A stretch of 64,000 nucleotides of DNA from Torpedo marmorata. Its lineage: Eukaryota. Where the stretch lies: assembly GCA_977017645.1 (NCBI GenBank), contig CDRNVU010000074.1:1984001-2048000 (forward strand), given 5' to 3'. A program made the translations under genes and the position numbers. Under the pieces are notes generated by a model. That model did no database searches. It was not told the origin of the DNA and saw only the letters and a program-made list of their open reading frames with translations. This document shows, piece by piece, positions 13,719 through 64,000 of the stretch (the first letter of the stretch is position 1; the number at the start of each line of letters is the position of its first letter).

Positions 13719-13883
13719 ACACACACACACACAAACTCTTCAGATAAGAATAGTGTTTATAGACATTTATAGTGGGGTTAATTGTTGTGAAATTATATGT
13801 TAAATTGTCTTTAATAAATATAAATTTCAATTTTACCCCTTTTGCATTGCGTCTTCTGTCGTTGCTGGTTTGAAGTTGTAAAA
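12951..13883 (+). mobile_element. Family A LTR (5' LTR of a degraded element)
   Basis: Starts TGTTATGGACC and ends TTGTAA(AA). It is followed by the PBS-like TGGGGGCTCATCCTAGGATTT and is homologous to the other ~0.9-kb LTRs. Confidence 0.92.
13669..13733. repeat. (CA)n microsatellite expanded within the LTR
   Basis: About 30 CA units here, versus about 5-8 at the same site in the other family A LTRs. Confidence 0.95.
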
Positions 13884-16449: not shown

Positions 16450-18252
16450 TGTTATGGACCATGACTGACCATTTGGACTGCGGAGGGTCAGTAGGAAGGA
16501 TGAAGTATTTTGGAGTACACACTGGGGCCAGGTACTGAAAGAGTTAACTTCCCCAGGACTTGGTGTACCCAGACAGAGAGAGACCAGAGAGAGAGACAGA
16601 CTGTGGAAAAAGATACATTGTTGCACTTTTGCAAAAGCAGGTGCAGATCTCTGCAAAAAGCAGACAGTTGGGAGTTGCAAAGGCTAGAGAACACAGCCAA
16701 ATCCAGGCTTGTGCATAGTCAGAGAAAAGACTGGCAGAATAGCACATGGCCTCCTGTCTAAGAGGGAGGCTGATCTTGCGCTCCCTCTCACAAATTTGCT
16801 TAGAAAGAAAGAAAAATTTGTATGGTCGACAGGTTGTCAGGAAGCATTTGTCAAATTGAAAGCTATGTTATGCCACCAACCTGTGCTTAAGTCACCTAAT
16901 TTAGAACAGCCGTTTTCGTTAGCCGTGGATGGCAGCGATGAAGCTGTGGGTGCGGTGCTGTTACAGAAGAAGAACGAAGAGTACATTGACCATCCGATAT
17001 CCTACTTCTCGAAGAAGTTCAATGATCATCAAAGGAATTATTCAACGATAGAAAAAGTGTTGTTGGCTCTTGTGTAGGCTCTACAACACTTTAATGTGTA
17101 TATCTGTACAGATCAATAACCACTCATAGTGTATACTGACCATACTCCATTGGGTTTTCTTTGTAAAATGAAAAATAAGAATCGACGGTTGTTGAATTGG
17201 AGTCTAATTTTGCAAGAATATAATTTGGTAATCACACATGTAAAAGGGAAAGATAATGTAATTGCTGATTGTCTTTCTAGATGTTAAACTTTATCAATGA
17301 AAATAGTTCATATTTTGTATTTGTGGATGAACATTGTAGATGTTGTTTATATTGTGACACCTCAATTAATTTCCAAAATTTTTTTGTGGGTGGGAGGTGT
17401 TATGGACCATGACTGACCATTTGGACTGTGGACGGTCAGCAGGAAGGATGAAGTCTTTTGGAGTATACACTGGGGCCAGGTACTGAAAGAGTTAACTTGC
17501 CCAGGACTTGGTGTACCCAGAGAGAGAGAGAGCAGAGAGAGACAGGCTGTGGAAAATATACTTTGTTGCACTTTTGCAAAAGCAGGTGCAGACCTCTGCA
17601 AAAAGCAGACAGTTGGGAGTTGCAATGGCTAGAGAACACAGCCAAATCCAGGCTTGCGCATCCCAGAGAAAAGACTGGAAGAATAGCACATGGCCTCCTG
17701 TCTCAGAGAAATTCTGAGTTAAAAGCAACTTCTGTGGAGAACAGGCGTGAGATCAGCGAGACCAGCTGTGAGATCCAAGCACACGCCTCATTCAGTGGTA
17801 TACTGATCTGGATCGCAATCCCTATGAATACACAAGAAGGGAATGTCATCAGAGAAGAAAAACAAGTATTTGTAAGCATAAACAGTCATTGTCTCTCTCC
17901 AACGTTCATTCACAAGTATTTCTACAAGTACACAGAGCTGAATTTGAAACCTAAACTTAGAGATTGAATTTTGTGGACTGTATTATTCTTTTTTTTGACT
18001 GACTTGTTTTTATGACTGATCTGGGTTTTTTGGGGAAAGTTTTTTCATTTTTACATAAGGGTTGGGCACAGACTGTAATGGTCTGGGCTTTACACACACA
18101 CACACCTTTTAGATAAGAATAGTGTTTATAGACGTTTATAGTGGTGTTAATTGTTGTGAAACTATATGTTTAATTGTCTTTAATAAATATAAATTTCAAT
18201 TTTACCCCTTTTGCATTTCGTCTTCTGTCGTTGCTGGTTTGATTTTGTCACA
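16450..18252 (+). mobile_element. Internally deleted family A element: partial LTR (16450-~16760) fused to RT thumb/RNase H (~16770-17287), PPT, and 3' LTR (17398-18252)
   Basis: Reads ADLALPLTNLLRKK..LAVDGSDEAVGAVLLQ..ISYFSKKF..NYSTIEK. GTGGGTGGGAGG precedes TGTTATGG at 17398, and the LTR ends TGTCACA. Confidence 0.9.
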
Positions 18253-18690: not shown

Positions 18691-18959
18691 GTGTTTTCGG
18701 TGAAAAGACCGACCCCAGTGAGTACCCGATGCTGCAAATTTTAAACCGACGAATGCAACGTTGAACCGAATTTTGACCCCATGTGAATCTCTTCATTACA
18801 GTTCCTGATCCACCCACTTGATGTCCCCATCACATAAGAGTTATGGGGTAAACAACACGAGGAATTATTCAGTGGGGAGCGAGTGAACTGACATCCTGCT
18901 ACAGCACAGTACAGGCCCGTCGGCCTTCGGTTTTGTGCCGATCCATATATTCCTTAAAA

Positions 18960-21078
18960 ATACTAAACCGTTAGTAGAGGCAATTAGAAGTGATTTGGCA
19001 ATTAATGGATTTACAGTCGGTCAAGAGCAACATAAAATTAGCTTATTTGCGGATGATGTTTTAATATATTTGACGGAGCCTGAGACTTCTTTGCAAAGAT
19101 TGCATTTTAAATTGGAGGAATATGGGAAAGTCTCTGGTTATAAGATAAATTGGGATAAAAGTGAAATTATGCCCCTTACAGAGGGAGATTATACTTTATG
19201 TAAAAGAAGTACTCAGTTCAAATGGCCACATAATGGAATAAAATATCTTGGGGTTCGAACAGATAATAAATTTAAAAAATTATATCAATGGAATTATTTA
19301 CCATTGCTTAAAAAGATTAAAGAAGACTTGAAATGGATTAATTTACCCATTACATTGATTGGAAGAGTTAACTGTATTAAAATTAATATATTTCCAAGGA
19401 TACAGTACTTGTATCAAACTACACCTATCTTATTACCACAGGCTTTTTTTCAGGATTTAAACAAACAAGTGCGAAAATTTCTTTGGAAAGGTAAAATGTC
19501 AAGAGTCTCTATGGAACGTCTAACATGGAAATATGAACTGGAAGGTCTACAACTCCCTAATTTTAAGAATTATTATCGAGCGGCACAGATTAGATTTGTT
19601 ACTTCTTTTTTTTAAAGAGAGGGAAGACTTGCATGGGTTGGAATAGAGATTGGTGAAATAGGAGAAATGGTACCAGAAGAATTTATGTACAAATGGAACT
19701 CAAATTTATTGATAGGTGCTAAAGAAACGCCGTTGTTAAAGCATTTGATTAATACTTGGAACAAGATTTATGATGAGATAGGGATGAAAGGAAACATATC
19801 ACCCAAAATGTCTTTGATACAGAATAATCTTATACCATTTATAAAAGATAATCAATTTTTAAATATATGGTCACAGAAAGGAATAAAGAAGCTGGAAGAT
19901 TGTTATGAAGGGAGCCAGTTTATGTCGTTTGTACAATTACGGAATAAATATGGAATACCCAATAACACTCTTTTTTGTTATTTTCAATTAAGAGGTTATC
20001 TAAGAGAAAAACTAGGTCCAGATATGTTGTTACAAGATTGTAGTGAGGTAGAAACCCTTATTAGGAAACGGAATATTTAAAAAAAAACTTCTATAATGTA
20101 TTCTATGCTACGAAGGGGAACTTTAAAACGAGACTTCATAAATCTTGACAAAGCATGGAGCAAGATCTTAACATTACAATTGATGAAAAAATATGGTCGG
20201 ATTTATGTCAAGATAGTATGACTAATACTGTTAATGTAAGATATAGATTAGTACAGTATAATTTTTTACATCAACTATACCTTACACCACAAAAACTGAA
20301 TAAGATAAAAATCTACGTTATCAAATAGGTGTTTTAGATGTGATGAAGTGGAGGGAACTTTTTTACTTTCAACATGGTTATGTTCTAAAGTTAAATGTTT
20401 TTGGATAGAGTTAGGGAACCGGTTAAAACAAATTACAGGTGTTAGATTTCCACAGAATCCTGATATATTTTTATTAGGAAATGTGGAAGGAACTAGACCA
20501 AAGTTGAAATTATCTACATGTCAACTGAAATTTGTAAAAATTGCTTTAGCAGTAGCAAGGAAGTGTATAGCAGTAACTTGGAAATCAGATAGAACTTTAA
20601 GTATGGATATAATGGAATTCAGAGATGCGGAGCTGTATTGGAAAGAATAACATATAATATGAGAAATAAATATGGGATATTTTTGCAAATGTGGCGTCCA
20701 TATATCCAATCATTAGGTATGAATATTTAAATGTGTTGCTCTACATCCTGGACCCTGTTGACTCTCTCAAATTTAAAGAATAAATATTGTTGAATACCAC
20801 GCGTTGAGCCGTGGACCCAGCAGCGATCCGTTCAGTTATTTTTGATAAGAAATATCAATGCCTTCTTTTCTTATTTTCTTTTAGATTTTAGCAAGGGGAG
20901 GGAATTAAAGGGTGGGAAAGGTGGAGGGTGGGTAACTTTTTAGAGGGTGGGTTAAGACGGGGGTCAGATGCACTGTAATACAAATTATGTTTTTTATTTA
21001 TTGGAATTAATAATGTATACTACGTATGTTGTATTACTGTGAGAAAATTTAAAATTCAAAATAAAATAATAAAAAAAT
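18960..21078 (+). mobile_element. L1-clade LINE, 5'-truncated: ORF2 C-terminal half, 3' UTR and poly(A)
   Basis: Motifs HKISLFADDVLIYL, SGYKINWDKSE and GLQLPNFKNYY are present. They are followed by a G-rich 3' UTR, AATAAA and an A-rich end at about 21060-21078. Confidence 0.9.
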
Positions 21079-21477: not shown

Positions 21478-22416
21478 TGTTAAGGACCATGACTGACCAT
21501 TTGGACTGCGGACGGTCAGCAGGAAGGATGACGTCTTTTGGAGTATACACTGGGACCTGGTACTGAAAGAGTTAACTTGCCCAGGACTTCTTTTATTTAC
21601 CAGAGAGAGACATCAGGGGGAGACAAACTGTGAAAAGCACACTTGGTTTTGAACCTTTTGGAAGAAGGCTGTGTAGAGATAACTCTCTCTCTCTACTGAA
21701 AGGCTTAAGGTTAAAACTAACTCAGTGGAGGTATTGGAGCTGAAAAGCGGGAGAACTCAGTAGGATACAGGCATGTGCATCCCAGTAAAGAAGTTGGAGA
21801 ATAGCACAGAGTCTCTTGAATCAGAAAGGTCCAGGCTTGTACATCCCAGAGAGAAAGGCTGTGGGAGTAAAGAAGGCCGGATGATTCACCAGAATCCTGA
21901 GTTATGAAGGCAGTTTCTGTGAGGAACTGGCTGTGAAATCTAAGTAAACGCCTTAATTCAAAACCGGATCTGAATTCGCAATCCTTATGAAAACACAAGA
22001 AGGGAACGTCATCAGAGAAGAAAATGAAGTCAAGTATTTGTAAGCATAAACAGTCATTGTCTCTCTCCAAAGTTTATTCAGAAGTACTTTTCCAGCACAC
22101 AGAGCTGAATTTGAAACCTGAACTTAAAGAGTGAACATTTGTGGACTGTATTATTTTTTTGACTGACTTGTTTTTATGACTGACCTGGGGTTTTTGGGGA
22201 AAGTTTTTTTTTCCATTTTTACATAAGGGTTGGGCACAGACTGTAATGGTCTGGGCTTTACACACACACCTTTTAGATAAGAACAGTGTTTATAGACGTT
22301 TATATTGGGGTTAATTGTTGTGAAATTATATGTATACTTGTATGTAATAAATATAAATTTCAATTTTACTCCCTTTGCATTTCGTCTTCTGTCGTTGCTG
22401 GTTTGAATATGTAACA
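21478..22416 (+). mobile_element. Family A LTR, 5' LTR of the host element (U3 variant shared with 14841)
   Basis: TGTTAAGGACC...TGTAACA, followed by the PBS. Confidence 0.93.
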
Positions 22417-22552
22417 AAATTGGGGGCTCGTTCTCGGGATTTGAATTAAAAATACATCTTGGTAATTGAAGGAATCCCAGTCTGGTTTAAGGCATTCCTT
22501 TTGTAAAGCTAACTGAAAGCTAGTTTGTGTGTGTAACGAAAAACCAGCAACA

Positions 22553-25500
22553 ATGGATCTAAGAGTAATTTTTGCAATCACCTGAACCTGATACTTTAAA
22601 AAAGGTCAAAAAGCAACAGTAAGTGGATATAGCAACAAAGTTGGGCTTTGCGTCTGTAAAACCATCAATGAAAAAGCAGAGATTGGGAGAAAAATAGTCA
22701 AATACTATATAAAATAAAAAAGTTTGAGGAGAGCTTGTTTGAGCAGTTTCGCAAGGGTAAACCTTCTGAAAACATACAGTTGGAAATAAAGAAATTGGAA
22801 TTGGAGGCAGCCAGGGAACAAAAGAAAGTAGACACGGAATTAGAAAAAAAGAAATTGGAATTGGAACAAAAGAGATTAGACTTAGATAACGAGGATAAAA
22901 ATAGGATATATGTGCTGGAAAAGATAAAGTTGGAAAATGTGGGGAGACTAGAAGAGCACCAAGATCAAATTCGTCATCCTGCTGAGGGGATTTTGGCTAG
23001 TAGAGAAGTTAGGTTGGTTCCTCCATTTGAGGAGGCAGAAATAGAAACGTACTTCCAACATTTTGAGAAGGTGTCTGTGAAATTAAAATGGCCACAAGTC
23101 CAATGGTCTCTTATGTTACAAAGTGTAATAAAAGGAAAAGCTCAGCAAGCTTATTCTACTCTTACCACGGAGCAAGCTGCTGATTATGAAACGGAGAAAA
23201 AGGCTATACTCCAGGCTTATGAGTTAGTTCCAGAGGCTTATAGACAGAAGTTTAGAAATTTAAAAAGATCAGTAACCCAATCTTATACAGAGTTTGCCTA
23301 TGAAAAGGTTGTGTGTTTGACAGGTGGTGCACATCTAAGGCAGTAAACAATGATTACAATCAATTGAGAGAATTGATAATAATCGAGGAGATAAAAAGGT
23401 GTGTTCATGAGGATATTAAGGGATATTTAGATGAAAAGGAGGTGAAAACATCGCAAAATTCAGCTACGTTAGCAGATGAATATGCTTTAACCCACAGGCC
23501 TAAGTGGACGTCAGGCAGAATATTCCAAAAGGTCACCGTTGATAATCCAAAGCAAGTGGAAAGTAAATTTGGAAGTCGTGTTAAGGAAAGGGATGAAGGA
23601 AAGTGCAAAAGGGAAAACCATTCAGGTCCCATTTGCCACTACTGTAGGAAGGCTGGTCATATGATAGCAAGCTGTCCAGTGTTGAAAAAGAAGAGAGAAA
23701 AGGAGGCAACACCTCATGCTTGCATTCAGAGTGAGAAGAGGCATAACACCCAGGAAGGAGATACATTTACTGACAAAGTTAGAGATGTATTTAAACATTT
23801 TGTGACTGATGGTTTTGTTTCAGTTAAGGCAGGATCTAAACAAGTTCCAGTGAAAATCTTGCGAGATATTGGAGCTGCTCAGTCACTTGTGTTAGATAGT
23901 GTCTTGGAATTTTGTAAAGCTACTGAAACCGGTGACATAAATTTAATTAAAGGAGTTGGGGGTGATGTTGAGTCCATTCCTTTGCACAAAATAGTGTTGG
24001 ACTCAGACTTGGTGGAAGGACCAGTTATAATAGGAGTGAGATCAGAGTTGCCAGTAGAAGTAGTCTCACTGTTTCTAGGCAATGACTTGGCCAAGGGTAA
24101 AGTGGTTTCTGCAGTGCGAATGACCACTAAGCCAGTAATTGATAATTCAGAGAAAGACTCTGATATTCATCGGGCATATGCCATAACCAGGGCCATGTCA
24201 AAGAAAAATGTCACTGTAGAAAAGGTAGAGGAAAATAACTTAGTGAAAGAAAAAGACAGTGATAATAAAGAAAACCTGGAAAAGGTTGAGCAGTCTCCTG
24301 TGTTACACCCATCCACTGATAAGACACCTACAGGCACAGATTTGTGACTATCCCGACAGGAGCTAATGGCAAGGCAAAAGGACGATCCAGATCTTGCTGA
24401 GGTGAGGGATAAGGTTCTCTCTGAAGAGGAGATTAAAAAGGTGCCAGTGGGTTATTATAAAAAAGATGGGTTGTTGATGAGAAAGTGGAGACCATGTGAT
24501 GTTCCTGCCGATGAAGAATGGGCAGTAGTGCAGCAGGTTGTGATCTCAAAAGTATATCTGGATGCAATAATAACTTTGGCTCATAGTACACCCTTAGGTG
24601 CTCACCTTGGGGTGAAGAAAACTATAAGGAAGATAATGAAACAATTTTATTGGCCCAGTTTGAGAAGGGAGGTTGTAAGCTTTTGCCGGGCCTGTCACAC
24701 TTGTCAGGTGGTGGGTAAACCTAATCAGGGTCCCCCGGTGGCACCCTTGCAACCTATCCCTGCTTTCAGTGAGCCTTTCTCGAGAGTAATTGTGGACTGT
24801 GTTGGCCCATTGCCCAAAACCAAAGCTGGGAATGAGTATTTGTTGACAATTATGTGTGCAGCCACCAGAATTCCAGAGGTAATTCCTCCAAGAAACATAA
24901 AAGCAAAGTCCATTGTAAAGGCTATGGAAAAGTCTTTCACCTTGGTAGGTTTGCCAAGGGAAATTCAATCAGATCAGGGCAGTAATTTCATGTCAGGCGT
25001 TTTCCAACAAGTGGTTGATGGACTAGGAGTTAAACAGATTGTATCCTTTGCGTACCATCCAGAAAGTCAAGGGGCCTTCGAGAGGTTCCATTCGACTTTG
25101 AAAAACATGATTAGAACCTATTGTTGTGAAAAGGAAAAGGATTGGGATGAGGGGGTTCATTTGTTGTTATTTGCAGCGAGGGAGTCTGTCCAATTATCAC
25201 TTGGTTTTAGTCCATTCGAGTTAGCTTTCGGACATGAGGTGAGAGGTCCTTTAAGATTATCAAAATAACAGTTGATTAATAGTGATGTGCATTTACATCT
25301 GTTAGATTATGTTTCCAAATGTAAGGATCGGTTACATAGGGCTTGTGAGATGGCAAAGGAGAATTTAAAGGCCACTCAACAGAGAATGAAGGTTTGGTAT
25401 GATCGAAAGGCTAAGATGAGAACTTTTAAACCTGGTGAGAACGTATCAGTTCTGTTTCCCATCCATTCAAATCCTCTTAGGGCTAGCATTTCAGGACCAT

Positions 25501-26383
25501 ATAGAGTTAAGTCAAAAATTAATGATGTCACTTATCTCAGAGAAACCCCTAATCGCAGACGAGACACACAGGTGTGTCCTGTGAATATGATTAAGCCATA
25601 TTTTGAACAGGTGCCGGGAAAAAGGACTGAACATTTATCAGATGTGCTGGTTATTGACAGAGGTAAGGAGGAGACAGATAAAACCAGTTTCAGAGAGGGT
25701 CCTGGGACTGTTAATTCTCAGGGTTATGCAGTAGGACAGGGGAAGTTGGCGCCAGAAGAGGCAAAGGCTGTGACTATTTCTGAGTTCCCTGTTCCAACTG
25801 GTAAGAAAACTCTGAAAAGGTTCCTGGGACTGATTCGTTACTTCCGCAAGTTCTGTAAAATCTTTGCGGATCTTGCGCTTCCTGTCACAAATTTGCTTGG
25901 AAAGAAAGAAAAATTTGTATGGTCAAAAGGTTTTCAGAAAACATTTGTCAAATTGATAGCCATGATATGCCACCACCCTGTGCTTAAGTCACCTAATTTA
26001 GAACAGCCGTTTCTTTCGCCGTGGATGCCAGCGATGAAGCTGTGGGTGCGGTGCTGTTACAGAAGAAGAACGAAGAAGACATTGACCATCCGGTATCTTA
26101 CTTCTCAAAAAAGTTCAATGATCATCAAAGGAATTATTCAACCATAGAAAAAGATTTGTTGGCTCTTCTGTTGTCTCTGCAACACTTTGATGTGTATATC
26201 TGTACAGCTCAGGAACCACCAATAGTGTATACTGACCATAATCTATTGGTTTTTCTTTGTAAAATGAAAAATAAGAATCGACGGTTGTTGAATTGGAGTC
26301 TAATCTTGCAAGAATATGATTTGGTAATAACACATATAAAAGGGAAATATAATATAATTGCTGATTGTCTTTCTATATGTTAA
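22553..26383 (+). pseudogene. Gmr1-like Gag-PR-IN-(RT core deleted)-RT thumb-RNase H polyprotein, copy 1, with stops and frameshifts
   Basis: Capsid/SCAN-like LQAYELVPEAYRQKFR; Zn knuckle CHYCRKAGHMIASC; protease LRD(I/T)GAAQS; integrase H..H..CRACHTC, DCVGP, SDQG, ERFHSTLK. Then KPY, about 35 aa, TVNSQGYAVGQG, RFLGLIRYFRKF, and RNase H DASD..NYSTIEK..YTDH..ADCLS. No YxDD motif. Confidence 0.93.
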
Positions 26384-26448
26384 ACTTTATCAATGAAAAT
26401 AGTTCATATTTTGTATTTGTGGATTAACATTGTAGATTTTGTTTATAT

Positions 26449-27346
26449 TGTTATTGACCATGACTGACGATTTGAACTGCGGACGGTCAGCAGGAAGGAT
26501 GAAGTCTTTTGGAGTATACACTGGGGCCAGGTACTGAAAGAGTTAACTTCCCCAGCTACTTGGTGTACCCAGACAAGATACATTGTTGCACTCTTGGTGT
26601 ACCCAGACAGAGAGAGACCAGAGAAAGAGAGACAGACTGGATAAGATACATTTGTTTCACTTTTTCAAAAAGCAGGGGCAGATCTCCGCAAAGCAGACAC
26701 AGTTGTGAGATGCATGGCTACAAGACACAGCCAAATCCAGGCGTGTGCAAAGTCAGAGGAGAAAGACTGACAGAATAGCACATGGCCTCCTGTCTCAGAG
26801 AGATTCTGAGAAAAAGCAACTTCTGTGGAGAACAGGCGTGAGATCAGCGAGACAAGCTGTGAGATTCAAGCATACGCCTAAATCAGTGGTATACTGATCT
26901 GGAACTTGCAATCCTTATGAACCTACAAGAAGGGAACGTCATCAGAGAAGAAAACAAGTATTTGTAAGCATAATCAGTCATTGTCTCTCTCCAACGTTCA
27001 TTCAGAAGTACTTCTACCAGACACAGAGAAAAAGTTGAAGCCTGAACTTAGAGAGTGGAATTTGTCGACTGTATTATCCTTTTTTTTTTGACTGACTTGT
27101 TTTTTATGACTGACCTGGGGTTTTTGGGGAAAGTTTTTTTTTCCATTTTTACATAAGGGTTGGGCACAGACTGTAATGGTCTGGGCTTTACACACACACC
27201 TTTTAGATAAGAACAGTGTTTATAGACGTTTATAGTGGGGTTAATTGTTGTGAAATTATATGTATACTTGTATGTAATAAATATAAATTTCAATTTTACT
27301 CCCTTTGCATTTCGTCTTCTGTCGTTGCTGGTTTGAATATGTAACA
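26449..27346 (+). mobile_element. Family A chimeric LTR (5' part like 31381, 3' part like 21478)
   Basis: Starts TGTTATTGACC like 31381. Its 3' part carries 21478-specific variants: GAACAGTG, TGTATACTTGTATG, TTTTACTCCC and a PBS reading GCTCGTTCTCGGG. Confidence 0.9.
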
Positions 27347-27482
27347 AAATTGGGGGCTCGTTCTCGGGATTTGAAATAAAAATACATCTTGGTAATTGAA
27401 GGAATCCCAGTCTGGTTTAAGGCATTCCTTTTGTAAAGCTAACTGAAAGCTAGTGTGTGTGTGTAACGAAAAACCAGCAACA

Positions 27483-30400
27483 ATGGATCTAGGAGTAATT
27501 TTTGGAATCACCTGAACCTGATACTTTAAAAAAGGTCAAAAAGCAACAGTAAGTGGATATAGCAACAAAGTTGGGCTTTGCGTCTGTAAAACCATCAATG
27601 AAAAAGCAGAGATTGGGAGAAAAATAGTCAAATACTATATAAAATAAAAAAGTTTGAGGAGAGCTTGTTTGAGCAGTTTCGCAAGGGTAAACCTTCTGAA
27701 AACATACAGTTGGAAATAAAGAAATTGGAATTGGAGGCAGCCAGGGAACAAAAGAAAGTAGACACGGAATTAGAAAAAAAGAAATTGGAATTGGAACAAA
27801 AGAGATTAGACTTAGATAACGAGGATAAAAATAGGATATATGTGCTGGAAAAGATAAAGTTGGAAAATGTGGGGAGACTAGAAGAGCACCAAGATCAAAT
27901 TCGTCATCCTGCTGAGGGGATTTTGGCTAGTAGAGAAGTTAGGTTGGTTCCTCCATTTGAGGAGGCAGAAATAGAAACGTACTTCCAACATTTTGAGAAG
28001 GTGTCTGTGAAATTAAAATGGCCACAAGACCAATGGTCTCTTATGTTACAAAGTGTAATAAAAGGAAAAGCTCAGCAAGCTTATTCTACTCTTACCACGG
28101 AGTAAGCTGCTGATTATGAAACGGAGAAAAAGGCTATACTCCAGGCTTATGAGTTAGTTCCAGAGGCTTATAGACAGAAGTTTAGAAATTTAAAAAGATC
28201 AGTAACCCAATCTTATACAGAGTTTGCCTATGAAAAGTTTGTGTGTTTGACAGGTGGTGCACATCTAAGGCAGTAAACAATGATTACAATCAATTGAGAG
28301 AATTGATAATAATCGAGGAGATAAAAAGGTGTGTTCCTGAGGATATTAAGGGATACTTAGATGAAAAGGAGGTGAAAACATCGCAAAATTCAGCTAAGTT
28401 AGCAGATGAATATGCTTTAACCCACAAGCCTAAGTGGACGTCAGGCAGAATATTCCAAAAGGTCACCGTTGATAATCCAAAGCAAGTGGAAAGTAAATTT
28501 GGAAGTCGTGTTAAGGAAAGGGATGAAGGAAAGTGCAAAAGGGAAAACCATTCAGGTCCCATTTGCCACTACTGTAGGAAGGCTGGTCATATGGTAGCAA
28601 GCTGTCCAGTGTTGAAAAAGAAGAGAGAAAAGAAGGCAACACCTCATGCTTGCATTCTGAGTGAGAAGAGGCATAACACCCAGGAAGGAGATACATTTAC
28701 TGACAAAGTTAGAGATGTATTTAAACATTTTGTGACTGATGGTTTTGTTTCAGTTAAGGCAGGATCTAAACAAGTTCCAGTGAAAATCTTGCGAGATATT
28801 GGAGCTGCTCAGTCACTTGTGTTAGATAGTGTCTTGGAATTTTGTAAAGCTACTGAAACCGGTGACAAAAATTTAATTAAAGGAGTTGGGGGTGATGTTG
28901 AGTCCATTCCTTTGCACAAAATAGTGTTGGACTCAGACTTGGTGGAAGGACCAGTTATAATAGGAGTGAGATCAGAGTTGCCAGTAGAAGAAGTCTCACT
29001 GTTTCTAGGCAATGACTTGGCCAAGGGTAAAGTAGTTTCTGCAGTGCGAATGACCACTAAGCCAGTAATTGATAAGTCAGAGAACGACTCTGATATTCAT
29101 CGGGCATGTGCCATAACCAGGGCCATGTCTAAGAAAAATGTCACTGTAGAGAAGGCAATGGAAAATAACTTAGTGAAAGAAAAAAACAGTGATAATCAAG
29201 AAAACCTGGAAAAGGTTGAGCAGTCTCCAGTGTTACACCCATCCACTGATAAGACACCTAAAGGCACAGATTTGTGACTATCCCGAAAGGAGCTAATGGC
29301 AAGGCAAAAGGACGATCCAGATCTTGCTGAGGTGAGGGATAAGGTTCTCTCTGAAGAAGAGATTACAAAGGTGCCATTAGGTTATTATGAAAAAGATGGG
29401 GTGTTGATGAGAAAGTGGAGACCACGTGATGTTCCTGCCAATGAAGAATGGGCAGTAGTGCAGCAGGTTGTGATCCCTAAAGTATATAGGGATGAAATAA
29501 TAACTTTGGCTCATAGTACACCCTTAGGTGGTCATCTTGGGGTGAAGAAAACTATAAGTAAGATAATGAAACAATTTTATTGGCCCAGTTTGAGAAGGGA
29601 GGTTGTAAGCTTTTGCCGGGCCTGTCACACTTGTCAGGTGGTGGGTAAACCTAATCAGGGTCACCCGGTGGCACCGTTGCAACCTATCCCTGCTTTCAGT
29701 GAGCCTTTACCGAGAGTAATTGTGGACTGTGTTGGCCCATTGCCCAAAACCAAAGCGGGGAATGAGTATTTGTTGACAATTATGTGTGCAGCCACCAGAT
29801 TTCCAGAGGTAATTCCTCCAAGAAACATAAAAGCAAAGTCCATTGTAAAGGCTATGGAAAAGTCTTTCACCTTGGTAGGTTTGCCAAGGGAAATTCAATC
29901 AGATCAGGGCAGTAATTTCATGTCAGGCGTTTTCCAACAAGTGGTTGATGGACTAGGAGTTAAACAGATTGTATCCTCAGCGTACCATCCAGAAAGTCAA
30001 GGGGCCTTGGAGAGGTTCCATTCGACTTTGAAAAACATGATTAGAACCTATTGTTGTGAAAAGGAAAAGGATTGGGATGAGGGGGTTCATTTGTTGTTAT
30101 TTGCAGCGAGGGAGTCTGTCCAATTATCACTTGGTTTTAGTCCATTCGAGTTAGCTTTCGGACATGAGGTGAGAGGTCGTTTAAGACAATCAAAATAACA
30201 GTTGATTAATAGTGATGTGCATTTAAATCTGTTAGATTATGTTTCCAAATGTAAGGATCGGTTACATAGGGCTTGTGAGATGGCAAAGGAGAATTTAAAG
30301 GCCACTCAACAGAGAATGAAGGATTGGTATGATCGAAAGGCTAAGATGAGAACTTTTAAACCTGGTGAGAACGTATTAGTTCTGTTTCCCATCCATTCAA

Positions 30401-31315
30401 ATCCTCTTAGGGCTAGCATTTCAGGACCATATAGAGTTAAGTCAAAAATTAATGATGTCACTTATCTCAGAGAAACACCTAATCGCAGACGAGACACACA
30501 GGTGTGATATCTGTGAATATGATTCAGCCATATTTTGAACAGGTGCCGGGAAAAAGGACTGAACATTTATCAGATGTGCTGGTTATTGACAGAGGTAAGG
30601 AGGAGACAGATAAAACCAGTTTCAGAGAGGGTCCTGGGACTGTTAATTCTCAGGGTTATGCAGTAGGACAGGGGAAGTTGGCGCCAGAAGAGGCAAAGGC
30701 TATGACTATTTCTGAGTTCCCTGTTCCAACTGGTAAGAAAACTCTGAAAAGGTTCCTGGGACTGATTCGTTACTTCCGCAAGTTCTGTAAAATCTTTGCG
30801 GATCTTGCGCTCCCTGTCACAAATTTGCTTAGAAAGAAAGAAAAATTTGTATGGTCAAAAGGTTTTCAGAAATCATTTGTCAAATTGATAGCCATGTTAT
30901 GCCACCACCCTGTGCTTAAGTCACCTAATTTAGAACAGCCGTTTCTTTCGCTGTGGATGCCAGCGATGAAGCTGTGGGTGCGGTGCTGTTACAGAAGAAG
31001 AACGAAGAGGACATTGACCATTCGGTATCCTACTTCTCAAAAAAGTTCAATGATCATCAAAGGAATTATTCAACCATAGAAAAAGATTTGTTGGCTCTTC
31101 TGTTGTCTCTGCAACACTTTTATGTGTATATCTGTACAGCTCAGGAACCACCCATAGTGTATATTGACCATAATCCATTGGTTTTTCTTTGTAAAATGAA
31201 AAATAAGAATCGACGGTTATTGAATTGGAGTCTAATCTTGCAAGAATATGATTTGGTAATAACACATATAAAAGGGAAATATAATATAATTGCTGATTGT
31301 CTTTCTATATGTTAA
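27483..31315 (+). pseudogene. Gmr1-like polyprotein lacking the RT core, copy 2 (tandem duplicate of copy 1, period ~4930 bp)
   Basis: ORFs are offset by exactly 4930 (22735/27665, 23313/28243, 24366/29296) and share inactivating stops (e.g. GTDL*, SK*). Confidence 0.93.
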
Positions 31316-32415
31316 ACTTTATCAATGAAAATAGTTCATATTTTGTATTTGTGGATTAACATTGTAGATTTTGTTTATATTGTTATTGACCATGACTGAC
31401 CATTTGAACTGCGGACGGTCAGCAGGAAGGATGAAGACTTTTGGAGTATACACTGGGGCCATGTACTGAAAGAGTTAACTTCCCCAGCTACTTGGTGTAC
31501 CCAGACAAGATACATTGTTGCACTCTTGGTGTACCCAGACAGAGAGAGACCAGAGAAAGAGAGACAGACTGGATAAGATACATTTGTTTCACTTTTGCAA
31601 AAAGCAGGGGCAGATCTCCGCAAAGCAGACACAGTTGCGAGATGCATGGCTACAAGACACAGTCAAATCCAGGCGTGTGCAAAGTCAGAGGAGAAAGACT
31701 GACAGAATAGCACATGGCCTCCTGTCTCAGAGAAATTCTGAGAAAAAGCAACTTCTGTGGAGAACAGGCGTGAGATCAGCGAGACAAGCTGTGAGATTCA
31801 AGCATACGCCTAAATCAGTGGTATACTGATCTGGAACTTGCAAGCCTTATGAACCTACAAGAAGGGGACGTCATCAGAGAAGAAAACAAGTATTTGTAAG
31901 CATAATCAGTCATTGTCTCTCTCCAACGTTCATTCAGAAGTACTTCTACCAGACACAGAGAAAAAGTTGAAGCCTGAACTTAGAGAGTGGATTTTGTCGA
32001 CTGTATTATCCTTTTTTTTTTGACTGACTTGTTTTTTATGACTGACCTGGGGTTTTTGGGGAAAGTTTTTCCATTTTTACATAAGGGTTGGGCACAGACT
32101 GTAATGGTCTGGGCTTTACACACACACACATACACCTTTTAGATATGAATAGAGTTTGTAGACGTTTATAGTGGGGTTAATATTTGTGAAATTATATGTT
32201 TACTTGTGTTTGATAAATAATAGTTTCAATTTTACCCCTTTTGCATTGCGTCTTCTGTCGTTGCTGGTTTGAATTTGTAACAAATTGGGGGCTCGTCATG
32301 GGATTTGAAACAAATTCCATCTTGGTAATTGAAGGAATCTTAGTTTGGTTTAAGGCATTCCTTTTGGTAAAGCTAATTAAAAGCTAGTGTGTGCGTAACA
32401 AAAAAACGAGCAACA

Positions 32416-35400
32416 ATGGATGTAGAAAATTTTTTGGAATCACCTGAACCTGATACTTTAAAAAAGGCGAAAAAGGAACAGTTAGTGGCTACAGCAAAAG
32501 GGTTGGGCATTGCTTCTGTAAAACCATCTAAGAAAAAGGCAGAGAATGGGAGAAGAATAGTCAAATAAAATATAAATGAAAAAAAATTTGAGGAGAGCAT
32601 GTTAGATCAGTCTCCCAAGGGTAAACCTTCTGAAAACATACAGTTGGAATTAAAGAAATTTGAATTGGAGCCAGCCAGGGAACAAAAGGAATTGTAGGCA
32701 GCCAGGGAACAAAAGGAATTGGAGGCAGCCAGGGAACAAAAGAAATTAGAGGCAGACAGGGAACAAAAGAACAGGGAATTGGAACAAAAGAAATTAGAAT
32801 TGGAATTGGAACGAAAGAAATTAGACATGAAAATGGAATTGGAACAGAAGAGATTAGACTTAGAGAACGATGAGAATAATAGGAGATATGAGCTGGAAAA
32901 GATGAGGTTGGAAAATGAGAGGAGACAAGATCAAATTCGTCATCCTGCTGAGGGGTTTTTGGCTCGTTGAGAAGTTAGGTTGGTTCCTCCATTTATGGAG
33001 GCAGAAATAGATAAGTACTTCCAACATTTTGAGAAAGTGGCTGTGAAAATAAAATGGCCACAAAGTGTAATAAAAGGAAAAGCTCAGCAAGATTATTCTA
33101 CTCTCACCACAGAGCAAGCTGCTGATTATGAAACGGTGAAAAAGGCTATACTCCAGGCTTATGAGTTAGTTCCAGAGGCTTAAAGACAGAAGTGTAGAAG
33201 TTTAAAAAGATCAGCAACCCAATATTATACAGAGTTTGCCTATGAAAGGTTTGTGTGTTTTGAGAGGTGATGCACATCTAAGGAAGTAAACAATGATTAC
33301 AATCAATTGAGAGAATTGATAATAATCGAGGAGATAAAAAGGTGTGTTCCTGAGGATATTAAGGCATACTTAGATGAAAAGGAGGTGAAAACTTGGCAAA
33401 CTTCAGCTAAGTTAGGAGATGAATATGCTTTAACCCACAAGCCTAAGTGGACGTCAGGTAGAATTTTCCAAAATGTCACGGTGGATAATCAGAAGCAAGT
33501 GGAAAGTAAATTTGGAAGTGGTGTTAAGGAAAGGGATGAAGGGAAGTGGAAAAGGGAAAACAATTCCAGTCCCATTTGCCACTACAGTAGGAAGGCTGGT
33601 CATATGCTAGCAAGCTGTCCAGTGTTGAAACAGAAGAGAGAAAAGGATGCAACACCTAATGCTTGCATTCAGAGTGAGAAGATGCATAACACCCAGGAAG
33701 GAGATAAATTTACTGACAAAGTTAAAGATGTATTTAAACATTTTGTGACTGATGGTTTTGTTTCAGTTAAGGCAGGATCAAAACAAGTGTCAGTGAAAAT
33801 CTTGCGAGATACTGGAGCTGCTCAGTCACGTGTTAGATAGTGTCTTGGAATTTTGTGAAGCTTCTGACACCGGTGACATAAATCTAATAAAATGAATTGG
33901 TGGTGAAGTTGAGTCCATTCCTTTGCACAAAATAGTATTGAACTCAGACTTGGTGGAAGGACTAGTTATAAAAGGAGTGAGATCAGAGTTGCCTGTAGAA
34001 GGAGTCTCACTCTTGTTAGGCAATGTCTTGGCCAAGGATAACGTAGTTCCTGCAGTGAGAATGACCACTAAGCCAGTCATTGATAAGTCAGAGAAACACT
34101 CTGATATTTATCCGGCATGTGCCATAACCAGGGCCATGTCTAAGAAAAATGTCACTGTAGAGAAGGCAGTGGAAAATAACTTGGTAAAAGAAAAAGAAAC
34201 TGATAATCAAGAAAACCTGGAAAAGGTTGAGCAATCTCCTATGTTACACCCATCCACTGATAAGACACCTAAATGCACAGATTTGTCACTATCCCGACAG
34301 GAGTTAATAGCAAGGCAAAAGGACGATCCTGATCTTGTTGAGATGAGTGATAAGGTTCTCTCTGAGGAGGAGATTAAGAAGGTGCCAGTAGGTTATTATG
34401 AAAAAGATGGGGTGTTGATGAGAAAGTGGAGACCACGTGATGTTCCTGCCAATGAAGAATGGGCAGTAGTGCAGCAGGTTGTGATCCCTAAAGTATATAG
34501 GGATGAAATAATAACTTTGGCTCATAGTACACCCTTAGGTGGTCATCTTGGGGTGAAGAAAACTATAAGGAAGATAAGGAAACAATTTTATTGGCCCAGT
34601 TTGAGAAGGGAGGTTGTAAGCTTTTGCCGGGCCTGTCACACTTGTCAGGTGGTGGGTAAACCTAATCAGGGTCCCCCGGTGGCACCCTTGCAACCTATCC
34701 CTGCTTTCAGTGAGCCTTTCTCGAGAGTAATTGTGGACTGTGTTGGCCCATTGCCCAAAACCAAAGCGGGGAATGAGTATTTGTTAACAATTATGTGTGC
34801 AGCCACCAGAATTCCAGAGGCCATTCCTCTGAGAAACATAAAAGCAAAGTCCATTGTAAAGGCTGTGGAAATGTTTTTCACCTTGGTAGGTTTGCCAAGG
34901 GAAATTCAATCAGATCAGGGCAGTAATTTCATGTCAGGCGTTTTCCAACAAGTGGTTGATGGACTAGGAGTTAAACAGATTGTATCCTCTGCGTACCATC
35001 CAGAAAGTCAAGGGGCTTTGGAGAGGTTCCATTCGACTTTGAAAACCATGATTAGAACCTATTGTTGTGAGAAGGAAAAGGATTGGGATGAGGGGGTTCA
35101 TTTGTTGTTATTTGCAGCGAGGGAGTCTGTCCAAGATTCACTCGGTTTTTGTCCATTCGAGTTAGTTTTCGGACATGAGGTGAGAAGTCCTTTAAGATTA
35201 TTAAAAGAACAATGGATTAATCGTGATGTGCATTTAAATCTGTTAGATTATGTTTCCAAATGTAAGGATCGGTTACATAGGGCTTGTGAGATGGCAAAGG
35301 AGAATTTAAAGGCCACTCAACAGAGAATGAAGGTTTGGTATGATCGAAAGGCGAAGATGAGAACTTTTAAACCTGGTGAGAACGTATTAGTTCTGTTTCA

Positions 35401-36325
35401 CATCCATTCAAATCCTCTTAGGGCTAGATTTTCAGGACCCTATAGAGTTAAGTCAAAAATTAGTGATGTCACCTATGTCATAGAAACACCTAAACGCTGA
35501 CGAGACACACAGGCCTGTCATGTGAATATGATTAAGCCATATTTTGAAAAGGTGCCACATAAAGGGACTGAAAATTTACCAGAGGTACTGGTTATTGTCA
35601 GGGGTAAGGAGGAGACAGATAAAACTAGTTTCAGAGAGCGTCATGGAACTGTTAATTCTCTGAGTTATGTAGTAGGACAGGCGAAGTTGGCGCCAGTAGG
35701 GGCAAAGTTTGTCGCTATTTCCGAGTTCCCTGTTCCAACTGGTAAGAAAACTCTGAGGAGGTTCCTGGGACTGATTGGCTACTACCGCAAGTTCTGTAAA
35801 AACTTTGCTGATCTTGCGCTCCCTCTCACAAATTTGCTTAGAAAGAAAGAGAAATTTGTATGGTCTACAGGTTTTAAGGAAGCATTTGTCAAATTGAAAG
35901 CCATTTTATGCCACCAACCTGTGCTTAAGTCACCTTATTTAGAACAGTCGTTTTCTTTAGCCGTGGATGCGAGCGATGAAGCTGTGGGTGCGGTGCTGTT
36001 ACAAAAGAAGAACGAAGAGGACATTGACCATCCGGTATCCTACTTCTAGAAGAAGTTCAATTATCATCAAAGGAATTGTTCAACTATACAGAAAGAGTTG
36101 TTGGCTCTTGTGTTGGCTCTACAACACTTTGATGTGTATATCTGTTCAGCTCAAAAACCACTCATAGTGTATACTGACCATAATCCATTGGTTTTTCTTT
36201 GTAAAATGAAAAATAAGAATCGACGGTTGTTGAATTGGAGTCTAATTTTGCAAGAATATAATTTGGTAATCACTCATATAAAAGGGAGAGATAATGTAAT
36301 TGCTGATTGTCGTTCTAGATGTTAA
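32416..36325 (+). pseudogene. Gmr1-like Gag-PR-IN-(RT core deleted)-RNase H polyprotein, copy 3
   Basis: ORFs at 33307 (LRDTGAAQS), 33923 (525 aa, integrase), 35522 (KPYF...RHGTVNSLSYVVGQ...FLGLIGYYRKF...VDASD) and 36098, with several stops. Confidence 0.92.
32662..32769 (+). repeat. 27-bp in-frame tandem repeat (ELEAAREQK) x4 in the Gag coiled coil
   Basis: Units read GAATTGGAGGCAGCCAGGGAACAAAAG; one has mutated to TAG. Confidence 0.85.
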
Positions 36326-37359
36326 ACTTTATCAATGAAAATAGTTCATATTTTGTATTTGTGGATGAACATTGTAGATTTTGTTTATATTCTGACACCT
36401 TACTTACTTTCCTAAATTTTGATCTTGCAGACCAAAATTTCCTTTGTGGGTGGGAGGTGTTATGGACCATGACTGACCATTTGGAAAGCGGACGGTCAGC
36501 AGGAAGGATGAAGTCTTTTGGAGTATACACTGGGGCCAGGTACTGAAAGAGTTAACTTCCCCAGCTACTTGGTGTACCCAGACAAGATACATTGTTGCAC
36601 TCTTGGTGTACCCAGACAGAGAGAGACCAGAGAGAGACAGTCAGACGAGACAAGATACATTTGTTTCACTTCTGCAAAAAGCAGGGGCTGATCTCTGCAA
36701 AGCAGACACAGTTGTGAGTTGCAAGGCTACAAGACACAGCCAAATCCGGGCGTGTGCAAAGTCAGAGGAGAAAGACTGACAGAATAGCACATGGCCTCCT
36801 GTCTCAGAGAAATTCTGAGAAAAAGCAACTTCTGTGGAGAACAGGCGTGAGATCAGCGAGACTAACTGTGAGATTCAAGCATACGCCTAAATCAGTGTTA
36901 TACTGATCTGGAACTTGCAATCCTTATGAACCTACAAGAAGGGGACGTCATTAGAGAAGAAAACAAGTATTTGTAAGAATAAACAGTCATTGTCTCTCTC
37001 CAACGTTCATTCAGAAGTACTTCTACCAGACACAGAGAAAACGTTGAAGCCTGAACTTAGAGAGTGGATTTTGTCGACTGTATTATCCTTTTTTTTTTGA
37101 CTAACTTGTTTTGTATGACTGACCTGGGGTTTTTAGGGAAGGTTTTTCCATTTTTACATAAGGGTTGGGCACAGACTGTAATGGTCTGGGCTTTACACAT
37201 ACACACATACACCTTTTAGATAAGAATAGAGTTTATAGACGTTTATAGTGGGGTTAATTGTTGTGAAATTATATGTTTACTTGTGTTTAATAAATAATAA
37301 TTTCAATTTTACCCCTTTTGCATTGCGACTTCTGTCGGTGCTGGTTTGAATTTGTAACA

Positions 37360-38273
37360 ATATTGTGACACCTCAATTAATTTCCAAACTTTTGTTCTTG
37401 CAGACCAAAATTTTCTTTGAGGGCGGGAGGTGTTATGGACCATGACTGACCATTTGGACTGCGGACAGTCAGCAGGAAGGATGAAGTCTTTTGGAGTACA
37501 CACTGGGACCAGGTACTGAAAGAGTTAACTTGTCCAGGACTTGGTGTACCCAAAGAGAGAGAGAGCAGAGAGAGACAGGCTGTGGAAAAGATACTTCGTT
37601 GCACTTTTGCAAAAGCAGGTGCAGACCTCTGAAAAAGCAGGCAGTTTGGAGTTGCAAAGGCTAGAGAACACAGCCAAATCCAGGCTTGTGCATTCCAGAG
37701 AAAAGGCTGGAAGAATAGCACATGGCCTCCTGTCTCAGAGAAATCCTGAGTTAAAAACAACTTTTGTTGAGAACAGGCGTAAGCAAAGCGAGACCAGCTG
37801 TGAGATCCAAGCACACGCCTCAATCAGTGGTATACTGATTTGGAGTCGCCATCCTCGTGAATCTCTACCAAAAGGTAAAGTCATCAGAGAAGAAAAAATC
37901 AAGCCAAGTATTCGTAAGCATAAACAGTCATTGTCTCTCTCCAACGTTCGTTGAAAAGTCCTTCTAACAGCACACAGAGCTGAATTTGGAACCTGAACTT
38001 AGAGAGTGAATGTGTGTGGACTGTATTATATTTTTTGACTGACTTAGGGTTTTTGGGGAACGTTTTTCCATTTTTACATGAGGGTTTGGCACAGACTGTA
38101 ATGGTCTGGTCTTTACATACACACACCTTTTTGATAAGAATAGTGTTTATAGATGTTTATAGTGGGGTTAATTATTGTAAAATTATATGTTTTATTGTCT
38201 TTAATCAATATAAATTTCAATTTTACCCCTTTTGCATTGCGTCTTCTGTCGTTGGTGGTTTGATTTTGTAACA
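37360..38273 (+). mobile_element. Remainder of the host 3' UTR and PPT (37360-37430) and 3' LTR (37431-38273)
   Basis: ATATTGTGACACC...GAGGGCGGGAGG, then TGTTATGGACC...TGTAACA. Confidence 0.92.
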
Positions 38274-60548: not shown

Positions 60549-63500
60549 TGTGATGGACCATGACTGACCATTTGGACTGCGGACGGTCAGCAGGAAGGAT
60601 GAAGTATTTTGGAGTACACATTCGGACCAGGTACTGAAAGAGTTAACTTGCCCAGGACTTGGTGTACACAGAAAGAGAGAGAGAGAGAGAGCAGAGAGAG
60701 ACAGGCTGTGTAAAAGATACTTTGTTGCACTTTTGCAAAAGCAGGTGCAGACCTCTGCAAAAAGCAGGCAGTTTGGAGTTGCAAAGGCTAGAGAACACAG
60801 CCAAATCCAGGCTTGAGCATCCCAGAGGAAAAGGCTGGAAGGATAGCACATGGCCTCCTGTCTCAGAGAAATCCTGAATTAAAAGCAACGTTTGTGGCGA
60901 ACAGGCGTGAGATCAGGGAGACCAACAGTGAGATCCAAGCACACGCCTCAATCAGTGGTATACTGATTTGGAGTCGCAATCCTCGTGAATCTCTACCAAA
61001 AGGGAAAGTCATCAGAGAGGAAAAAACAAGTCAAGTATTCGTTAGCATAAACAGTCATTGTCTCTCTCCAACGTTCATTGAAAAGTCCTTCTACCAGCAC
61101 AGTGAGCTGAATTTGGAACCTGAACTTAGAGAGTGAATTTTTGTGGACTGTATTATATATTTTTTGACTGACTTGTTTTTATGACTGACCTGGGGTTTTT
61201 GGGGAAAGTTTTTCCATTCTTACATGAGGGTTGGGCACAGACTGTAATGGTCTGGGCTTTACACACACACACCTTTTAGATATGAATATTGTTTATAGAC
61301 GTTTATAGTGGGGTTAATTGTTGTGATATTATATGTTTAATTGTCTTTAATAAATAGAAATTTCAGTTTTACCCCTTTTGCATTGCGTCTTCTGTCGTTG
61401 CTGGTTTGATTTTGTAACACAATTGGGGGCTTGTCCGGGATTTGAATCAAAATCCATCTTGGTAATAGAAGGGATCCCAGTTTGGTTTAAGACATTCCTT
61501 TTGTAAAGCTAATTAAATGCTAGTGTGTGTGTAACGCAAAACCAGCAACAATGGATGTAGGAGAATTTTTGGAATCACCTGAACCTGATACTTTAAAAAA
61601 GGCAAAAAAAAGGAACAGTTAGTGGCTATAGCAACAGGGCTGGGCATTGCTTCAGTAAAATCATCTATGAAAAAGACAGAGATTTGGAGAAAAATTGTTA
61701 AATACTATATAAAAGATAAATATTTGAGGAGAGCGTGTTAGAGCAGTTTCCCAAGGGAAAACCTTCTGAAAACATACAGTTGGAAATAAAGAAATTGGAA
61801 TTGGAGGCAGCCAGGGAACAAAAGAAATTGGAATTGGAACAAAAGAGATTATACTTAGAGAACGATGAGAAACATAGGAGATATGAGCTGGAAAAGATGA
61901 GGTTGGAAAATGAGAGGAGACAAGAAGAGCACCAAGATCAAATTTGCCATCCTGCTGAGGGGTTTTGGCTAGTAGAGAAGTTAGGTTGGTTCCTCCATTT
62001 GAGGAGGCAGAAAAAGATAAGTACTTCCAACATTTTGAGAAGGTGGCTGTGAAATTAAAATGGCCACAAGACCAATGGTCTCTTATGTTACAAAGTGTAA
62101 TTAAAGGAAAAGCTCAGCAAGATTATTCTACTCTTACCACAGTGCAAGCTGCTGATTATGAAACGGTGAAAAAGGCTATACTCCAGGCTTATGAGTTAGT
62201 TCCAGAGGCTTATAGACAGAAGTTTAGAAATTTCAATGATCTGCAACCCATTCTTATACAGAGTTTGCCTACGAAAAGGTTGTGTATTTTGACAGGTGGT
62301 GCACATCTAAGGCAGTAAACAATGATTACAATCAATTGAGAGAATTGATAATAATCGAGGATATAAAGAGATGTGTTCCTGAGGATATTAAGGCATACCG
62401 AGATGAAAAGGAGGTGAAAACTTGGCAAAATTCAGCTAAGTTAACAGTTGAATATGCTTTAACCCACAAGCCTAAGTGGACGTCAGGTAGAATTTTCCAA
62501 AAGGTCACTGTGGATAATCAGAAGCAAGTGGAATGTAAATTTGGAAGTGGTGTTAAGGAAAGGGATTAAGGAAAGTGGAAAAGGGAAAACCATTCGGGTC
62601 TAATTTGCCACTACTGTAGGAAGGCTGGTCATATGATAGCAAGCTGCCCAGTGTTGAAAATTAAGAGAGAAAAGGATGCAACACCTAATGCTTGTATTCA
62701 GAGTGAGAAGAGGCATAATACCCAGGAAGGAGATAAATTTACTGTAAAAGTTAAAGATGTATTTAAACCTTGTGTGACTGATGGTTTTGTTTCAGTTAAA
62801 GCAGGATCAAAACAAGTTCCAGTGAAAATCTTGCGAGATACTGGAGCTGCTCAGTCACTTGTGTTAGATAATGACTTGGAGTTTTGTGAAGCTACTGACA
62901 ATGGTGACATAAATTTAATTAAAGGAATTGGTGGTGATGTTGAGTCCATTTCTTTGCACAAAATAGTGTTGGACTCAGACTTGGTGGAAGGACCTGTTAT
63001 AATAGGAGTGAGATCATAGTTGCCAGTAGAAGGAGTCTCACTGTTGCAAGGCAATGACTTGGCCAAGGGTAAAGTAGTTCCTTCAGTGCGAATGACCACT
63101 AAGCCAGTCATTGATAAGTCAGAGAAAGACTCTGATATTTATCCGGCATGTGCCATTACCAGGGTCATGTCTAAGAAAAATGTCAAGGTAGAGAAGGCAG
63201 TGGAAAATGACTTGGTGAAAGAAAAAGACAGTGATAATCAAGAAAACCTGTAAAATGTTGATCAATCTCCTGTGTTACACCCATCCAATGATAATACACC
63301 TAAAGGCACAGATTTGTCACTATCCCGACAGGAGCTGATAGCAAGGCAAAAGGACGATTCTGATCTTACTGAGGTGAGGGATAAGGTTCTCTCTGAAGAG
63401 GAGATTAAAAAGGTGCCATTGGGTTATTATGAAAACGATGGGGTGTTGATTAGAAAGTGTACACCATGTGATGTCCCTGCCAATGAAGAATGGGCAGTAG

Positions 63501-64000
63501 TTCAGCAGGTTGTGATCCCTAAAGTATATAGGGATGCAATAATAACTTTGGCTCATAGTACACCATTAGGTGGTCACCTTGGGGTGAAGAAAACTATAAG
63601 GAAAATAATGAAACAATTTTATTGGCCCAGTTTGTGAAGGGAGGTTGTAAGCTTTTGCCGGGCCTGTCACACTTGTCAGGTGGTGGGTAAACCTAATCAG
63701 GGTCCCCCGAAGGCACCTTTTCAACCTATCCCTGTTTTCCGTGAGCCTTTCTCGAGAGTGATTGTGGACTGTGTTGGCTCATTGCCCAAAACCAAAGCGG
63801 TGAATGAGTATTTGTTAACAATTATGTGTGCAGCCACCAGATTTCCAGAGGCCATTCCTCTGAGAAACATTAAATCAAAGTCGATTGTAAAGGCTATGGT
63901 AAAGTGTTTCACCTTGGTAGGTTTGCCAAGGGAAATTCAATCAGATTAGGGCAGTAATTTCATGTCAGGCGTTTTCCAACAAGTGGTTGATGTACTGGGA
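60549..64000 (+). mobile_element. Family A element: 5' LTR (60549-61419), PBS (61424-61446), degraded gag-PR-IN running off the window
   Basis: TGTGATGGACC...TGTAACA; TGGGGGCTTGTCCGGGATTTGAA; then VRLVPPFEE, LRDTGAAQS, HSTPLGGHLG and DCVG. Confidence 0.93.

Follow-up and report, generated by a model that had tools for sequence, protein, structure and literature searches.

A Gmr1-like Gypsy retrotransposon of Torpedo marmorata whose most numerous form lacks the reverse-transcriptase core

Most described non-autonomous LTR elements have lost all of pol, or all of their coding sequence. For the reverse-transcriptase (RT)-less element that we describe here, the closest precedent is mouse IAP 1Δ1, a non-autonomous form with an internal deletion and one fused ORF that likewise needs a helper; in the covered part of its description, it is the source of most new insertions and a cis action of its fusion protein is reported (PMC6466679). 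According to the same account, IAP 1Δ1 is a retrovirus-derived ERV whose 1.9-kb deletion takes parts of gag and pol, with Gag and Pol needed in trans. The RT-less form belongs to the Metaviridae and differs in having lost the polymerase core alone, with complete coding regions for Gag, PR, IN and RNase H. Among plants, three semi-autonomous Gypsy elements, RLG_Quinta (PMC11302176), RLG_Sabrina_SA (PMC9744471) and pol-less Athila (PMC2410132), are alike in depending on a helper and in retaining coding sequence together with the PBS and LTR ends of that helper. As far as these sources were covered, the three have retained Gag, together with protease, Env or a DUF, but neither RT nor IN, and each is a family of its own that has diverged from its helper; the RT-less form keeps IN and RNase H and remains in the gene pool of its helper. 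The coding sequence of pol-less Athila is described as being under purifying selection, and the element as recombining with autonomous forms (PMC2410132). The definition of Gag-only, TR-GAG or Quinta-type elements, with RT and IN both absent, does not fit the RT-less form, in which the integrase is complete. In the Gmr1 clade of Gypsy elements the integrase lies 5' of RT, and in the covered part of that source the clade and the RT-less form are alike in this order and in a SCAN-related gag (PMC8220671). Gmr1 relatives keep RT (RVT_1 was found in 20/20 database relatives of the junction region), whereas here the RT catalytic core is absent from the majority form. Two database proteins without RVT_1 (P0020 and P0092) were considered and rejected as examples of the RT-less form, as they have other break points and have lost the thumb sequence. 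We found no description of a Gypsy form that lacks the RT core and bears IN and RNase H in literature titles and abstract openings, a search whose scope lay outside Repbase, Dfam and subscription journals.

We analysed a 64-kb stretch of T. marmorata DNA, referred to as the window. Positions 21478-38273 hold a tandem array in the order LTR-internal-LTR-internal-LTR-internal-LTR, followed by one extra LTR, so that the array has five LTRs; its internal regions are each 4.0-4.2 kb long. The features are as follows.

21478..22416, plus strand: first (5') LTR of the array, with a U3 subtype unlike that of the next three LTRs
22417..22440, plus strand: primer-binding site (PBS), common to RT-intact copies and presumably of the tRNA-Pro type
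22553..23696, plus strand: copy 1 gag, with coiled-coil repeats, a SCAN/capsid-like part and a CCHC knuckle; broken by frameshifts
23799..24146, plus strand: copy 1 protease region, motif D-I-G
24342..25604, plus strand: copy 1 integrase (H2C2, rve, p58_C/SH3), 5' of the RT remnant, which is the Gmr1 order
25691..25720, plus strand: RT-deletion junction of copy 1; 771 nt (257 codons) missing relative to the RT-intact form
25710..26380, plus strand: copy 1 primer-grip remnant, thumb and RNase H, matching Ty3 RT residues 257-475 only
26449..27346, plus strand: LTR common to copies 1 and 2, without a PPT ahead
27347..31380, plus strand: internal region of copy 2, which forms a tandem duplicate with copy 1 (98%); junction at 30623-30652
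31381..32282, plus strand: LTR common to copies 2 and 3, without a PPT ahead
32283..36457, plus strand: internal region of copy 3, with the younger haplotype and a 3' PPT; junction at 35632-35661
36458..37359, plus strand: 3' LTR of copy 3
37431..38273, plus strand: extra LTR of another subtype with a PPT in front; end of the array
60549..64000, plus strand: fourth copy of the family, RT-less; its junction lies ~660 bp beyond the window end

The array copies have decayed, their in-frame stops numbering 6, 7 and 8 and frameshifts being present as well; the protease motif reads D-I-G in copy 1 as against D-T-G in open-frame copies. Copies 1 and 2 are 98% identical, have 78 rare variants in common and both lack the PPT; they are thus a local tandem duplicate and not independent insertions. 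No TSD was found when the left and right ends of the array were compared. The junction stretches of the window contig (C114) have 100% identical matches on contig C119, which is probably a duplicated contig or haplotig of the window region. A rearranged pile of the same family lies at 12951-18252 on the plus strand, in the order LTR, gag start, LTR, gag start, partial LTR fused directly to thumb/RNase H, LTR, with the two inner LTRs splitting gag. On the minus strand, 58063-58726 holds thumb/RNase H sequence from a Gmr1 family that is more distantly related (~60% amino-acid identity), truncated upstream by a non-LTR element. The window also contains two rhodopsin-family GPCR frames (7tm_1), at 1421-2805 (plus strand) and 46512-47603 (minus strand), the former broken by 5.1 repeats of a 116-bp unit at 96-98% identity.

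All three array copies, and the fourth, lack the RT fingers and palm through a single in-frame deletion of 771 nt. The gap takes in the end of the linker, the fingers and the palm, including all three polymerase aspartates, and leaves the coding regions for gag, protease, integrase, thumb and RNase H. Between the post-integrase NM(I/L)KPY and the post-palm G-Q-G the distance was 150 nt, in frame, in 41/42 RT-less copies (the remaining copy being a regular-expression mismatch), and 928-934 nt in sister RT-intact elements (19 measurable of 30). When a natural RT-intact piece of 524 amino acids was searched against the window with tblastn, at junctions 1 and 3 the alignment jumped from residue ~43-48 to residue ~297, and at junction 2 it was extended weakly, at 41% identity, to residue 89. 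The best solved-structure match of this helper piece is Ty3 RT (E=6e-87), to which it aligns over residues 51-475, and the RT-less remnant covers residues ~255/257-475 only. Pfam identified SCAN, zinc knuckle, H2C2, rve, p58_C and RT_RNaseH in the element ORFs, with SCAN weak in the window pieces, and found no RVT_1 in the RT-less ORFs; blastn with the RT core gave no match within the 64-kb window. Two RVT_1 matches in the window (6243-7814 and 18887-19612) belong to unrelated non-LTR elements. These results confirm what an earlier note on this DNA had claimed for the array, namely three in-frame RT-less junctions (here placed at 25691-25720, 30623-30652 and 35632-35661), internal regions without an RT core, and a Gmr1-like order with Gag-PR-IN-thumb-RNase H retained. 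The PR-IN-RT-RH order is seen in the Pfam domains of the RT-less ORF and its relatives and in the RT-intact form, where RVT_1 follows IN, and the family has TG..CA LTRs, a PBS, a PPT and a short TSD. The nearest named relative is a Pristis pectinata (sawfish) protein of Gmr1 layout, 58% identical over Gag-PR-IN and 68% over thumb-RNase H. By its domain order and homologues, the family would be labelled a Gmr1-type Gypsy element. An autonomous element carries its own RT catalytic core (D, YxDD), and this was absent from every RT-less copy tested, which places the form outside that class.

We observed the RT-less form throughout the genome. A 261-bp junction query returned 40 scored matches of 1,411 candidates, every one of which spanned the junction. 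A 31-nt pattern for the main junction had 13,532 exact matches, two older junction forms had 2,372 genome-wide, and an RT-intact pattern whose left half is identical to that of the junction pattern had 5,683; reversed controls gave 0. By these counts, which are exact-match lower bounds of unequal sensitivity in an assembly in which at least the window region is duplicated (C114/C119), RT-less copies outnumber the RT-intact form by ~2.8 to 1 and make up about three quarters of the counted pool; if full length, they would amount to up to ~1.5% of the 6.2-Gb assembly. We sampled 57 copies among the matches listed first, on contig C1, and of the 29 with both ends recognisable, 25 were flanked by exact 4-bp TSDs, 22 of them different. 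LTR-LTR identity of RT-less copies reached 99.7% in this sample and 100% in one best-match copy. The RT-less form is therefore genome-wide and has transposed, and the dispersed junction copies with their own TSDs anticipated by the earlier note do exist. Among pairs with common rare variants no recent burst of RT-less copies was seen except for the window duplicate. At C1:5,291,043-5,301,010 and 12,279,502-12,290,158, RT-less junctions lie ~5 kb apart, which suggests more tandem arrays resembling that of the window.

The identical 771-nt skip was also present in contigs of 3/4 other public runs with three different organism codes, and the summed depth in those runs was lower over RT than over its flanks; these are contigs from coded samples. 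No run is registered as RNA, and in the one guessed to be RNA the junction occurs as a contig only. In the fourth run, X3, no joint was found and coverage had a hole over RT.

A search for RT-intact elements with the same LTR and PBS, as the earlier note had proposed, was successful. In the first same-family RT-intact copy, the flanks of the gap are 94% and 92% identical to the RT-less form, and its RT as a query gave 40 scored matches at 96-100%. All 30 loci that we fetched carry family sequence on both flanks of RT, with an identity of mostly 89-96% across the coding part, and the break of the RT-less form falls at the 11-nt direct repeat described below. RVT_1 lies 3' of IN, and the RT region was near-complete in 38/40 sampled matches to the RT-intact pattern. 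RT-intact and RT-less forms have LTR ends, PBS, PPT and TSD length in common. Median LTR-LTR identity was 97.1% in RT-less (n=38) and 96.5% in RT-intact copies (n=23; p=0.96), and thus their activity periods overlap. With a shared PBS, shared LTR ends and overlapping activity, the RT-intact form qualifies as a helper, and the proposal that the polymerase is borrowed from such a helper gains support. A whole open frame was found in 0/60 sampled RT-intact copies, the longest being 1,477 and 1,383 codons, so that an active helper is presumed rather than observed. Sister Gmr1 families, found with a sawfish RT query, were considered as the parent and rejected once the same-family RT-intact form was known. 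They have ~70-78% DNA identity, unrelated LTR bodies, the same PBS/PPT type and 2,020 pattern matches; an equivalent junction guessed for them, with a single breakpoint tried, gave 0 matches. These sister RT-intact families of the same genome (rows L060-L109) are possible secondary helpers. The 3' half of the PBS varies between copies, and identical variants occur in RT-less and RT-intact forms (L111-L170, L222-L261). Such a pattern would follow from a PBS that is inherited from RNA and not recopied from tRNA, as is described for Ty3 in the covered part of that source (PMC5371799).

Next to the junction the two forms differ, and away from it they are mixed. The deleted or intact label changes 26 times on the gag tree, 25 times on the PR tree and 28 times on the IN tree, against shuffled means of 39-46, and 6 times on the thumb-RH tree, in which junction-linked codons are included. 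Part of this interleaving reflects low resolution, since the trees are star-like. Near-fixed differences between deleted and intact copies are confined to codons 1094-1116, within ~20 codons of the junction. Old and young haplotypes are present as mosaics in both forms, LTR clades and LTR subtypes mix both, and low-frequency variants are shared mostly through recurrent mutation. Rows L059 (duplicate contig) and L146 (mis-centred) were left out of the counts. Deleted and intact forms make up a single recombining pool with no separate lineage. The earlier description of a semi-autonomous lineage thus holds for helper-dependent mobility and fails for a separate lineage, as haplotypes and LTR subtypes are common to both forms away from the junction.

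The junction occurs in three states, which we call I-Y (unchanged; 1,064 copies), N-Y (~1,300, the remainder of the 2,372) and N-S (13,532). The old haplotype carries the junction in 19/19 scorable I-Y copies, 5/5 N-Y copies and 13/50 N-S copies. Divergence by rare variants was 2.6%, 2.4% and 1.0%, respectively, a measure that is possibly inflated for old-type copies. The junction-linked changes built up stepwise in RT-less copies. Because I-Y and N-Y are confined to the old haplotype and are more diverged, the deletion would have arisen once and early, consistent with the earlier claim that it is ancestral to the window copies. We infer that recombination carried it through the turnover of haplotypes, and such carriage would imply co-packaging with helper RNA. 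The deletion might also be imagined to have recurred at a short repeat, through RT slippage or recombination of DNA, as many independent accidents, or the RT-less form to be a spliced RNA. The break does sit in an imperfect direct repeat of 11 nt, which encodes Gly-His-x-Thr at either end, and the helper sequence is unchanged at 1,064 junctions. These unchanged junctions are, however, old and found on the old haplotype only, two derived junction changes are common to 13,532 copies, and no canonical splice ends border the gap in any register on either strand. Recurrence or splicing is therefore scarcely credible, and a single old deletion remains our reading.

We then considered the open frame. 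ORFs of at least 1,280 codons were present in 5/95 RT-less copies. In each of seven scored columns, a catalytic residue of PR, IN or RNase H was the most frequent one (the third RNase H aspartate was read from two translations only), and the integrase D-D-E residues were the commonest in 94-96 of 96-97 copies. Nonsynonymous (N) and synonymous (S) variants were counted column by column, leaving out CpG-type changes and window copies. Private variants of RT-less copies (878 N, 288 S and 81 stops) were neutral-like. Shared variants amounted to 42 N, 63 S and 0 stops in RT-less copies and 60 N, 69 S and 0 stops in helpers, which corresponds to N/S values of 0.22 and 0.29 of neutral. Four regions, gag, PR, IN and RNase H, showed a significant depletion of N among shared variants; the PR-IN spacer, the junction zone (p=0.21) and the thumb alone (p=0.21) did not. 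The earlier note had predicted dN/dS below 1 for the deleted copies. The values are indeed well below 1, but crediting them to RT-less genomes did not hold: 121/130 shared variants of the larger sample are also present in helpers, so that the purifying signal belongs to the whole pool. As RT-less-specific shared variants number only 5 N and 4 S, selection in cis is inseparable from recombinational refreshing. Purifying selection on the RT-less genome itself is likely, if not proven. The observations that the earlier note had named as counter-evidence, RVT_1 in the internal region or a junction at this locus only with neutral dN/dS, were not made.

The RT-less form might be a pure passenger, its RNA moved wholly in trans and its proteins idle, with the frame kept tidy by recombination with helpers around the junction. 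This would fit the 121/130 shared variants found in helpers and the nonsynonymous changes that accumulate at junction-linked codons, and any deletion is in frame by chance 1 in 3. We nevertheless think it unlikely. Although some three quarters of the counted pool are RT-less genomes, none of their stops attains a frequency of 8%; their shared N/S is no higher than that of the helper; and all 8/8 frame-breaking large deletions seen were single-copy, none having been amplified, while the sole other shared large deletion is in frame. The rarity of stops and frame-breaking deletions, although RT-less copies are the majority, is indirect support for a role of the frame in cis. We think it likely, though by no means certain, that the RT-less form is packaged with helper-made RT and translates its own Gag-PR-IN-thumb-RNase H, with the frame needed in cis. 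The element may in that case supply its own particle, protease, integrase or RNase H, as the earlier note had envisaged.

The retained thumb and RNase H correspond to part of Ty3 RT, an asymmetric homodimer (PDB 4OL8) in which polymerase activity and that of RNase H are divided between two subunits (PMC5371799). Both Ty3 subunits are full length, and one without fingers and palm is not among the published details covered. In RT-less copies, four adjacent primer-grip residues have become polar or charged with their neighbours unaltered (post hoc p ~0.007, with two of the four fixed by the design of the search pattern), which is compatible with relaxed constraint as well as with an exposed surface that has adapted. 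A split RT, in which a functional thumb-RNase H provides RNase H in trans to the helper polymerase like Ty3 subunit B, would make the two forms a cooperative pair. The deletion exactly spares Ty3 residues ~255-475, the RNase H activity of Ty3 is described as coming from the non-polymerising subunit (PMC5371799), the RNase H catalytic residues are retained and the four polar changes would suit this model. In the same account, however, the RNase H of Ty3 subunit B sits between the fingers and palm of that subunit, two parts that are missing here, and helper recombination accounts for the RNase H conservation; we regard a split RT as very unlikely. A two-component retrotransposon, in which the majority genome encodes Gag, PR, IN and a free thumb-RNase H with a polar-adapted N-terminus, the last of these acting as RNase H partner to a polymerase from the RT-intact minority, seems to us quite improbable. 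Complex prediction for helper RT-RNase H with thumb-RNase H, from single sequences and without nucleic acid, scored 0.00 and is evidence neither way.

In the favoured reading, of an RT-less form that needs its frame in cis, one deletion would have occurred at the 11-nt repeat, probably by template switch. RT-less RNA would then meet helper RNA or Pol in common particles, where helper RT may copy both and switch between them, as the mosaic haplotypes and matching ages suggest. Integration of the cDNA would be normal, in line with the two LTRs and 4-bp TSDs observed. The open frame would be retained since cis translation is probably needed for RNA packaging or stability, by analogy with IAP 1Δ1, and may also be refreshed from the helper via recombination. 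The orphaned primer-grip residues turned polar stepwise, as seen at the junctions. The RT-less form behaves like a long-lived defective-interfering genome that still holds most of its protein set.

In conclusion, the RT-less form drops only the polymerase core, yet it outnumbers its helper. In an animal Gypsy element, it provides an extensive, dated record from nature of how defective and helper genomes are co-packaged and recombine, so that cis preference, helper load and whether RNase H can be separated from polymerase can be tested by counting. RT-based annotation or phylogeny would overlook the majority form of this family.
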